Virus record (IMG/VR): IMGVR_UViG_2534682338_000009
Coordinates: 1-12,048 of that record
Reading direction: 5' to 3' (one strand)
Length of the DNA stretch: 12,048 nt
Source of the DNA: a virus
Taxonomy: Duplodnaviria; Heunggongvirae; Uroviricota; Caudoviricetes
Position numbers and translations under genes: made by a program
Shown here: in pieces, positions 6,315 to 8,135 of the stretch
Numbering within the stretch: the stretch's first letter is position 1
How the letters are laid out: each line of letters begins with the position of its first letter
The notes under the pieces: generated by a model
Told to the model about the DNA's origin: nothing
What the model saw: only the letters and a program-made list of their open reading frames with translations
Databases searched by the model: none

Positions 6315-8135
6315 ATGAAATTAGTTCGTATTGACATACAAAACTTTAGAGGTATTTCTTCTGCCTCTATCAATCTCGAAAACTTTACAACCTTAATAGG
6401 TTCTAATAACATTGGTAAATCAACCATACTTAAAGCGATAAAAATACTTGTTGATACAACTAATCCAACGTCTGAAGATTGGCCATTTCGTACACCCAGT
6501 AATGAAGAAATGATCATCACAGGAGTTTTTTCCGACATACAAGATTGCGAGCAAAATAAACCAGCCATTTCTAATCTAATTCATGAAGGGAAACTCAGTA
6601 TTCGAGTTAGAGCTAAATGGGATCATGACAATGGATGTATAGGTCTTCCTTGTTATGAAGCATTTTATTGCAAAGAAGATATAGAGGACTATACAACGTC
6701 TATAACCGCCGCAAGAAATATTCCGTGGTTGCTAAACATCATAAATGAACTTAATTGTAATAATGCTAAAAGCTACAAGGAAATGCAAAGTGACATTATT
6801 GGATTAATAAAACAAAGGCATCCGGAAAAAGTTTCATCTAATTTATGCTGGACTTCTGAAGGCATTAACTTTAAGAATAGCTTACAGCAAGCTCTACCGC
6901 ATGTATTATATATACCAGCATGTTTTAAAATTGAGGACGATCTTAAATCACAGAAAGGCACACCTTTTGGATTTTTATTTTCTAATAGAGTTTATCCAGT
7001 ACTACAGTCTGACCCATCTTTCACCCAATATACTGCCTCGCTTGACCTATTGCACAAGAAGATGAAAGGTGAAGTTGATGGTGAAGTTATTGAAGGATTG
7101 CATGAATTAATGGAGTCTATTACTGAATCTCTTAATCAGGTGATGGACTTAAAATCTAAGGTAAAATTAAGCCTAACTGAAATTGACATTAATTCTGCTT
7201 TAATGAAGGCAGCAACATTAGTCATTGAAGATAAACTTGAAACTCAACTTGAATATCAGGGTAGTGGAGTTCAACGAGCTTTGGCTTATGCTTTACTTGA
7301 ATCTAATGCTTTATTCGAAGTCAATACGTCTCAAAGATCAACAATTATTCTTTATGAAGAACCTGAGCTATATATACATCCACATTTGATGCGATTACTG
7401 AGAGATAAACTTAGAGAAAAATCAACAAATGCCTCTTGCCAAGTTATCGTTAGTACACATTCACCATTCTTAATTGATATTGCAGAAAACCCATCGTCTC
7501 TAAAATTAATTAAGGATACTAATGACGGCACTAGAACGGTTCATGAAATAGATGATACAATTTTCCATGTAGATGAACATTATAATGAAAGGGAAATGTT
7601 ACGAGCGGCATTAGATTTTCATCCTACCGTCTGTGAAGCATTTTTCGCTAAAAGAGTAGTCGTAGTTGAGGGAGATACAGAAGTAGCAATACTTAGGTTT
7701 GCTTCAGAACTATGCGACAAATTCGGTATCTCAAAAAATTTAGTAAAAGATACAACTATTGTTTCTGCTGGAGGGAAATGGACAATCCCAGCCATAGTGA
7801 GAATTCTTTCAAAACTCAATATTCCATTTAAAGTTGTTCATGATACTGATAGAAAAGGAATGTCCGAAGAAGAATTACGTAACATATCACCAATAAACGC
7901 ATTTCGTGCAAATGCGAAGATTGAAAATATAGTTGGTGCCGAAAGAGTATTCCGAGTAGATGATACATTTGAACATTTACTATGGGATCCAATGATTGAT
8001 GGAAATGCACCTTCAGATGGAGGAAAACCTTTCAATGCCTGGAAAAGAATACGTGATTACTTAGAAGGTAGTGTTATATTACAACCAAACTGTGAAACTA
8101 AACTCAGGAATGTAATTAGATTCATTTATGAGTAG
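6315..8135 (+). CDS. OLD-family (overcoming lysogenization defect) ATP-dependent nuclease: N-terminal ABC-type ATPase plus C-terminal TOPRIM domain; standalone (Class 1-like)
   Basis: 606 aa. Walker [10 protein letters not shown] (nt ~6399-6425) after an N-terminal [14 protein letters not shown] segment. Signature-like [13 protein letters not shown], Walker B/D-loop [13 protein letters not shown] (nt ~7341-7385), H-loop VSTHSPF (~7452-7469). C-terminal TOPRIM motifs VVVVEGDTE (~7656-7685) and VVHDTDRKG (~7833-7859). No helicase or second nuclease gene adjacent. Confidence 0.85.

Follow-up and report, generated by a model that had tools for sequence, protein, structure and literature searches.

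The window analysed here, a 12,048-nucleotide (nt) stretch of Caudoviricetes DNA (positions 1 to 12,048 of the IMG/VR record IMGVR_UViG_2534682338_000009), carries packaging and head genes of a prophage together with a gene for an OLD-family nuclease, in which an ABC ATPase is joined to a TOPRIM domain. This gene, referred to below as OLD, is the sole unshadowed plus-strand gene of at least 85 amino acids (aa) in the window, and its neighbours run on the minus strand. Assembly GCA_000190855.1 (locus L004 in our comparisons) contains the window at 100% identity, and the msyB–mdoH region flanking it there is 100% Escherichia coli. The element is a prophage with a large serine recombinase at its boundary, by which this lineage integrates into yegD or beside msyB. 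A first reading of the DNA letters alone (the original prediction) had described a standalone OLD nuclease gene divergent from the small terminase gene; that gene, terS, does lie at 5295–5864 on the minus strand (phrog_57, 1.9e-17), followed by a gpA-type large terminase (GpA_ATPase 1.1e-50, GpA_nuclease 2e-41) and then by a head-tail joining protein, a portal and a protease-capsid fusion. OLD itself appears from its sequence to be a bona fide, intact Class 1 nuclease gene and an accessory of its prophage.

The gene and the segments of its product are listed below. Residues are related to those of the Old protein of phage P2 (P2 Old) and the OLD protein of Thermus scotoductus (Ts OLD), and invariance refers throughout to 41 relatives, down to 47% identity.

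6315..8135, plus strand: OLD-family ATPase-TOPRIM nuclease gene, stop codon included (open reading frame (ORF), Pfam, PADLOC, PHROGs and the ratio of nonsynonymous to synonymous divergence, dN/dS).
6315..7475, plus strand: ABC ATPase region, aa 1–387, with an inserted helical segment, putatively of the dimerization type (AAA_15; AlphaFold (AF2) model).
6399..6425, plus strand: Walker A motif or P-loop, GSNNIGKST, with K35 (G29, G34, K35 and S36 invariant; K35 corresponds to P2 Old K37).
6612..6854, plus strand: family-specific ATPase insertion, aa ~100–180, with no P2 Old counterpart (long BLAST gap against P2 Old).
7254..7277, plus strand: ABC signature-like YQGSGVQR, aa 314–321 (Y314 to R321 invariant).
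7347..7382, plus strand: Walker B (E348, E349) and D-loop histidine H355 (invariant; E348/H355 correspond to P2 Old D299/H306).
7452..7466, plus strand: H-loop STHSP with H382 (T381-H382-S383-P384 invariant; H382 corresponds to P2 Old H332).
7641..7982, plus strand: TOPRIM nuclease domain, aa 443–556 (Pfam match over aa 443–512; the HMMER alignment to Ts OLD reaches aa 556–572).
7668..7682, plus strand: TOPRIM glutamate pair, E452 (predicted metal A) and E456 (predicted metal B) (Ts OLD E377/D381, P2 Old E398/E402; invariant).
7842..7850, plus strand: DxD, D510 and D512 (predicted metal A) (Ts OLD D431/D433, P2 Old D453/D455; invariant).
7965..7973, plus strand: T551-F-E553, with T551 and E553 as predicted metal B ligands (Ts OLD S478/E480; T551 and E553 invariant).
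8025..8027, plus strand: K571, candidate transition-state Lys/Arg (K571-P572 invariant; aligns with Ts OLD K492-P493).

The reading frame is full length, as had been claimed, with 606 codons for amino acids between its ATG and its TAG; its start is not extendable upstream, because the ORF listing opens at the first start codon after a stop. Each motif quoted in the original prediction was found where it had been placed (GSNNIGKST at aa 29–37, the Walker B/D-loop at aa 345–356, STHSP at aa 380–384, VVVVEGDTE of the TOPRIM domain at aa 448–456 and HDTD at aa 509–512). The hidden Markov model search that it had proposed matched the protein to all three Pfam families, at scores exceeding the curated cut-offs: AAA_15, whose entire profile spans aa 1–387 (9.4e-38), AAA_21 (1.3e-18) and OLD-like_TOPRIM (PF20469) over aa 443–512 (2.6e-14). 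The N-terminus also matches Pfam DUF2813. In PHROGs the protein falls in phrog_4747, a family of unknown function (8.8e-101), and in PADLOC the Old model ranks first (1.4e-74, 250 bits); NCBIfam holds no equivalog for it, the matches to MAD3, the Eco8 effector, PtuA and RecF all being sub-threshold. Comparison with the copy in E. coli C2, which is 94.5% identical, gives a dS of 0.216 and a dN of 0.019. The resulting dN/dS of 0.088 shows purifying selection on the gene, which is therefore a selected coding gene and not a chance ORF.

The catalytic residues were mapped by BLAST against P2 Old and by HMMER against Ts OLD, and set beside the mutational data of Schiltz et al. 2020 (PMC7049728), according to which mutating the mapped residues abolishes P2 Old killing or Ts OLD cleavage and D299 and H306 of P2 Old are both essential. 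All of K37, D299, H306, H332, E398, E402, D453 and D455 of P2 Old have counterparts in OLD. Among the relatives, K35, Q315–G318, E348/E349, H355, H382, E452, E456, D510, D512, T551 and E553 are invariant, and we take YQGSGVQR to be the signature motif by analogy with ABC ATPases in general. The claim that the ATPase and metal-binding residues are intact is thus borne out by a counterpart for every mutated P2 Old or Ts OLD residue, except for a displaced Lys/Arg that is taken up below, and the alignments show the predicted two-metal TOPRIM site to be complete.

This intactness bears on the suggestion that OLD could be a remnant, either decaying or without function. The prophage that the window covers is itself defective, because the end of an IS256-like insertion sequence, IS1414 (window positions 1–197, 97–99% identical to many E. 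coli copies), truncates its capsid gene, such that the protease-capsid fusion (ORF 166–1602, minus strand) has 478 aa against 616–620 aa in intact versions. OLD, however, remains a full-length ORF with every catalytic residue, a low dN/dS and no frameshifts or lost motifs, and the identical protein occurs in 213 blocks of the collection index and as an exact translation in all six of the loci shown, from six assemblies. We therefore find it hardly credible that the gene is a remnant.

An AF2 model of OLD built on the 41 relatives has a mean predicted local distance difference test score (pLDDT) of 77, with most of the ATPase core and the TOPRIM domain above 85 and low values over aa ~200–340. 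The TOPRIM domain is modelled as a four-stranded sheet (pLDDT 85–95), after which only two C-terminal helices follow (571–605); this would suit a Class 1 protein, as that class lacks the helical TOPRIM insert and the C-terminal helical domain of Class 2. The ATPase insertion at aa ~100–180 is modelled as strands and four short helices (pLDDT 84–91), and its W102 and W179 are invariant. Searched with Foldseek, the model is closest to the Class 1 Ts OLD structure 6P74 (5.9e-26), then to GajA and then to the retron Eco8 protein; by sequence the best match in the PDB is likewise 6P74 (1.3e-25, or 7.6e-39 with the family profile), with GajA next.

The original prediction had also treated OLD as a single-gene system, and the neighbourhood agrees. 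Among its neighbours in the window, searches with Pfam, PADLOC and NCBIfam found no helicase, reverse transcriptase or DUF4435 protein, and Rfam and tRNA scans of the window returned nothing, so that there is no retron non-coding RNA and no phage tRNA in it. The next downstream gene (8538–8915, minus strand) is convergent and has no family match. Beyond the window, all ORFs within 5 kb of full-length OLD relatives were clustered at 25 loci: no neighbour is conserved, the largest shared neighbour family being present at three or fewer of the 25. The ten largest neighbours comprise SelB, an AMP-binding enzyme, an integrase, an nSTAND3 NTPase, an SbcC-like ATPase, an AAA_21 ATPase, a chondroitinase-like protein, a fucosidase, a ribonucleotide reductase and one protein without a Pfam match; there is no helicase among them. 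Class 1 OLDs are defined as single genes without a helicase or reverse transcriptase (PMC12392090), and a lone gene of this kind is therefore Class 1 by the published definition.

Several matches nevertheless point towards multi-gene systems, in which OLD would have a partner that we missed: Gabija (GajA/GajB), PARIS (AriA/AriB) or a retron-linked Class 3 system. PADLOC gives secondary matches to AriA (153 bits, 5.4e-45, confined to the ATPase part) and to many models of GajA (up to 121 bits, down to 1.5e-35), and lower scores to a retron I-B ATPase-Toprim protein (76 bits) and to fused AriAB (74 bits); NCBIfam adds a sub-threshold match to the retron Eco8 effector, and GajA and retron Eco8 are the next-best folds. 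GajA, which belongs to Class 2 (a Class 4 is also listed; PMC12392090), shares the two-domain fold of OLD and is its second-best structural match, at about half the PADLOC score of the Old model. All of these scores are far below that of the Old model and the NCBIfam matches are far below their cut-offs; moreover, the window contains no UvrD-like helicase, reverse transcriptase, DUF4435 protein or non-coding RNA, the nearest downstream gene is convergent, and the neighbours are not conserved over the 25 loci. A missed partner is accordingly very improbable. Each system was also rejected individually: Gabija, as there is no GajB-type helicase in the window or at the family loci and the GajA models score so far below Old; PARIS, as the AriA model covers the ATPase part only, the fused AriAB score is low and the TOPRIM domain is PF20469, with no DUF4435 match; and a retron-associated Class 3 system of the Eco8 type, as there is no reverse transcriptase and no Rfam family and NF038234 scores 56.7 bits against a cut-off of 250.

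Within Class 1, Ts OLD (PDB 6P74) is the closest solved relative by both sequence and fold. The two proteins are ~19% identical; their DKPY segment and their ligands for metals A and B align collinearly, and both appear to end in a short C-terminus with no recognisable Class 2 helical domain. OLD is ~80 aa longer, mostly in the ATPase/dimerization region, and comes from a mesophilic source, on a prophage. The biological role of Ts OLD is not known, but in vitro the protein degrades DNA (PMC7049728).

P2 Old (UniProt P13520) resembles OLD in being a single-gene ABC ATPase with a TOPRIM domain (586 against 606 aa), but the two proteins align only over aa 1–512, at 23% identity. The region past the DxD motif is unaligned, the spacing from DxD to metal B is 39 aa in OLD and 86 aa in P2 Old, and the distal TOPRIM domain of OLD is closer to Ts OLD than to P2 Old; the ~75-aa ATPase insertion of OLD is absent from P2 Old. 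There is no tin-like second gene at the OLD locus, and the phage backbones are unrelated, the OLD prophage having a lambda-type gpA terminase and a serine recombinase. P2 Old cuts tRNA anticodon stems upon RecBCD inhibition (PMC12445682). OLD could conceivably work in exactly this way, sensing when RecBCD is inhibited (as it is by lambda Gam) and killing the cell through anticodon-stem cleavage in tRNA-Thr(UGU) and related tRNAs: Old is its best PADLOC model, the single-gene architecture and the E. coli host are the same, and in both cases the gene is prophage-borne, lies close to cos and is transcribed away from it (P2 old starts 214 bp from cosR, OLD a few hundred bp from the candidate cos described below). 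The low identity, the unaligned and Ts OLD-like region past DxD and the additional insertion all speak against so exact a correspondence, as does the RecBCD independence of two other Class 1 proteins, Vc OLD and YbjD. Because identity is only ~23%, the trigger and target of P2 Old are not transferable to OLD, and we regard a P2-like mode of action as unlikely.

Vc OLD of Vibrio cholerae is, like OLD, a stand-alone Class 1 protein on a mobile element. It nicks DNA independently of RecBCD, and its abortive-infection defence requires Walker A, Walker B and TOPRIM acidic residues (PMC12392090). Its residues K48, D313, D468 and D470 were compared with those of OLD by published numbering only; since the numbering differs, Vc OLD is shorter and differently organised, and its metal B triad is E/N/E against E/T/E in OLD. 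The 607-aa Vibrio relatives of OLD are another protein than Vc OLD. YbjD (OldB) of E. coli is also a stand-alone Class 1 OLD and shares the DUF2813 N-terminus, but its similarity to OLD is patchy and confined to short segments (BLAST 2e-5 and 1e-3); its TOPRIM domain is dispensable and its action RecBCD-independent (PMC13261556). Anti-phage phenotypes have been obtained with P2 Old, Vc OLD and YbjD as single genes (PMC12445682, PMC12392090, PMC13261556).

OLD belongs to a collinear subfamily of ~600–630 aa proteins found in Escherichia, Citrobacter, Enterobacter, Klebsiella, Morganella, Vibrio, Pseudomonas, Aeromonas, Shewanella and some Bacteroidota. Among 1.84 billion representatives clustered at 50% identity, there are roughly 25 full-length ones below 1e-85 and 136 below 1e-30. 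In E. coli the gene is uncommon, with 7 carriers among 5426 complete genomes. The subfamily is uncharacterised and already carries generic database names ('ATP-dependent nuclease', 'endonuclease of the OLD family'); what OLD adds is a new member to an established family, as opposed to a system of a new kind.

The DNA features that surround the gene and delimit the segment shared with other elements are as follows.

5987..6314, plus strand: upstream non-coding part of the cassette, presumed promoter/leader (~92% identical in C2-type prophages).
5994..6037, no strand assigned: conserved, GC-rich bipartite motif, GCGGCGAAAACTCC (5994–6007) and GGGAGTACCTAT (6026–6037), at the left boundary of the slot.
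8152..8171, plus strand: perfect 20-nt palindrome TGCCAGTACTAGTACTGGCA, 17 nt after the stop codon, a terminator-like hairpin without a U tract.
8262..8324, no strand assigned: (TACTCAT)x9 heptamer array, a perfect repeat at the right edge of the shared cassette.

The original prediction had suggested that OLD is a defence moron, partly for its lower GC content. The GC content is indeed lower (34.4% against 38–41% in the head and packaging genes, with 29% and 23% in the intergenic regions that flank OLD), but this difference is modest and comparative genomics provides the stronger support. First, in the sibling prophage L001 the head module is 88% identical up to position 6006, beyond which lie four unrelated small genes and no OLD. 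Second, C2-type prophages share only 5987–8275, at 92% identity, and their packaging genes gave no blastn alignment of at least 150 nt at E ≤ 1e-10. Third, in L005–L007 identity is 83–91% in the head genes and ~100% across OLD and everything to its right in the window, with the switch at ~5991. Fourth, the arrangement of terS (minus) and OLD (plus) recurs in Mangrovibacter and Erwinia, where OLD is 85% and 63% identical while TerS is only 36–38% and TerL only ~50% identical. Together, these four comparisons show OLD to be what we term exchangeable cargo, at an apparent recombination junction. Most OLD relatives are not beside phage genes.

Three independent mosaic breakpoints converge on the bipartite motif: the homology with L001 ends at 6006, that with L002 starts at 5987 and L005–L007 switch at ~5991. 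The motif lies ~130–170 bp upstream of terS and is kept in Escherichia, Mangrovibacter and Erwinia prophages, making it a candidate cos/packaging site as well as a candidate recombination junction. Searches of the terS–OLD intergenic DNA against annotated phage cos regions gave chance-level matches only, so the cos assignment is based on conservation and breakpoints. The cohesive end of lambda, GGGCGGCGACCT, shares the GCGGCGA core with the motif. At the other side of the gene, the palindrome is identical in the E. coli C2 copy and its RNA fold has a free energy of −14.2 kcal/mol (z = −3.4). The heptamer array, 127 nt after the OLD stop codon and between convergent genes, is a hypervariable repeat: its copy number is 2, 3, 3, 4, 9 and 11 in otherwise ~100% identical elements, it is absent in C2, and the homology with C2 ends at 8275.

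P2-like phages and P4-like satellites have a comparable arrangement in their cos-adjacent defence hotspots (Rousset et al. 2022, PMC9122126), where, as here, a variable slot lies beside the packaging site and cargo is swapped between diverged phages with the flanking site kept. The present case differs from these hotspots in its phage lineage, in that its cos is a candidate only, and in that the alternative cargo has no recognised defence domains. In the Erwinia persicina locus L011, two additional plus-strand genes (133 and 304 aa, no known domains) lie between the motif and OLD (L011:1237–2579), and the gene just after OLD (L011:4861–5637) has an HNH/type IV restriction-like match (5e-9); the slot can therefore hold several cargo genes.

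The 606-aa OLD ORF is retained in L002, L004, L007 and L008 despite split or broken terminase, portal, capsid or recombinase genes. The split genes in L002, L007 and L008 may reflect either prophage decay in which OLD was kept or assembly errors in the records; the intactness of OLD in prophages with broken genes argues for host-side selection. It also bears on whether OLD might instead serve the lytic cycle of the phage itself, in host DNA degradation, replication/recombination or end processing near cos. The gene adjoins the packaging genes and the candidate cos; proteins of replication and repair often have TOPRIM or ABC ATPase folds, and there are weak N-terminal matches to RecF, RecN and SbcC; and Pfam and NCBIfam recognise no replication genes of the prophage in the window. 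On the other side, the sibling L001 lacks OLD while having head genes that are 88% identical, most relatives lie away from phage genes, OLD is oriented against the late operon and is intact in prophages no longer able to form particles, and the models that it matches best are those of defence OLDs, as opposed to repair proteins. A lytic function is thus improbable. A repair ATPase of the RecF/SbcC/Rad50 type was also rejected directly, as only the first ~45 residues match RecF, RecN, SMC_N and the SbcC phrog, far below cut-offs. The original prediction had named a best match to RecF/SbcC-type proteins, the lack of a TOPRIM domain or the absence of catalytic residues as findings that would speak against it; the best match is of another type, the TOPRIM domain is present and the catalytic residues are not missing on alignment.

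Elsewhere, the prophage is AT-rich (36.5% GC, against ~51% in the host), and a relative in strain WGI31CT occupies ~32.5 kb inside yegD and carries siphovirus-type tail genes. A megablast of the whole window against phages matched only the IS1414 end, and the best TerL match among 50,697 phage records is 38.7%, with no close sequenced phage among them; judged on these data, the lineage is an undescribed, siphovirus-like one. Other features of the window were noted in passing. The interval 8538–10809 (minus strand) holds small AT-rich ORFs without a Pfam, NCBIfam or PADLOC family, whose translations include one of 125 aa with a signal-peptide-like N-terminus, one of 87 aa that is acidic, one of 177 aa that looks like a multi-pass membrane protein (27.9% GC) and one of 225 aa that resembles a lipoprotein (phrog_1353, unknown function); additional roles in lysogenic conversion or exclusion are conceivable for these genes. 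The 760-bp spacer that separates orf225 from orf158 contains an exact tandem repeat with a 14-nt unit (GACTTTGGATAATT x2.5, at 11184–11218), which could be an operator- or iteron-like site. Finally, imperfect repeats of 9, 18, 21 and 42 nt at 863–1026 encode a Glu/Val-rich (EEVQ-type) stretch in the middle of the protease-capsid fusion, which looks like a scaffold or linker segment.

Taken together, we consider it probable that OLD is a single-gene Class 1 OLD that is carried as accessory cargo by a ~32 kb siphovirus-like prophage of E. coli and related species and that acts in abortive-infection defence. The gene occupies the slot beside the candidate cos motif upstream of terS and is transcribed against the late operon; its protein would be made in the lysogen and stay idle until superinfection by another phage disturbs the cell. 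The binding and hydrolysis of ATP would then license the TOPRIM site to cut nucleic acid, and cutting would stop the infection at the cost of the cell, protecting the lysogen population and the prophage. ATPase-licensed cleavage is proposed because ATPase and nuclease residues are both needed in P2 Old and Vc OLD (PMC7049728, PMC12445682, PMC12392090). The domain architecture, the intact catalytic residues, the purifying selection, the lack of a partner gene and the cassette-like mobility are seen directly in the data; from such relatives we infer, by analogy, the expression in the lysogen, the defence role, the abortive outcome, the trigger and the substrate. For the substrate, we give DNA, nicked by Vc OLD and degraded by Ts OLD, about an even chance and a tRNA stem (as for P2 Old) an appreciable but lesser one, leaving a small share for anything else.

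Six points weigh against this interpretation. The defence role is drawn from family analogy. Class 1 OLDs vary in trigger and substrate, and in YbjD the TOPRIM domain is dispensable, so function is not confidently transferable to OLD. The Lys/Arg of Class 1 proteins (Ts OLD R487, P2 Old K550) has no clear positional equivalent; there is no Lys or Arg between E553 and G570, and the sole candidate is K571, 18 residues past E553, the role of which is uncertain because it aligns with Ts OLD K492 in the shared DKPY segment and not with R487. The helices at aa 217–333 fall in the expected place of the dimerization segment but are modelled with low confidence (pLDDT 30–55). A scan for sigma-70 consensus sites over 5865–6314 found none of at least 9/12, and a relaxed scan reached 8/12 at most; expression in the lysogen is therefore only assumed, as no convincing sigma-70 promoter lies upstream. 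Lastly, the other slot cargo (four genes in L001, two in L011 and two in L009) has no Pfam or PADLOC match, apart from a weak LmuB-like match and the HNH/type IV restriction endonuclease-like match in a gene that follows OLD in L011; this cargo thus lends no independent support to the slot as a defence hotspot.

Single-gene Class 1 OLDs are the oldest known prophage-encoded exclusion factors, and few have been studied. The four compared here, P2 Old, Ts OLD, Vc OLD and YbjD (PMC12445682, PMC7049728, PMC12392090, PMC13261556), disagree on trigger, substrate and even the need for the nuclease domain. The OLD subfamily is separate, well conserved and E. coli-borne, hence easily testable, and its setting provides a natural comparison set of elements with and without OLD, and the cassette keeps its packaging-proximal junction even between phages with terminases of only about 50% identity.

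More tentatively, and with distinctly less confidence, the subfamily of ~606-aa proteins could form a Class 1 clade with a function of its own, defined by the conserved ~75-aa insertion, the E/T/E metal B triad and the displaced active-site lysine K571; the insertion may be a new infection sensor, and GCGGCGAAA(A)CT...GGGAGTACCT may mark a cos-adjacent cargo hotspot in undescribed serine-recombinase siphophages. If this is true, an insertion sensor would give a trigger, a substrate or both unlike those of P2 Old (RecBCD inhibition, tRNA) and Vc OLD (a nickase), and the hotspot would extend the rule that defence genes sit next to cos beyond P2 and P4; if the motif is indeed cos, the layout copies that of P2 (old near cosR, cos-adjacent hotspot; PMC9122126). 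Should defence not be borne out, OLD would stay an ordinary annotated 'ATP-dependent nuclease'; if defence does hold up, OLD would provide a fifth reference point for how stand-alone OLDs sense infection, and its prophage a second phage lineage with a cos-adjacent cargo slot.

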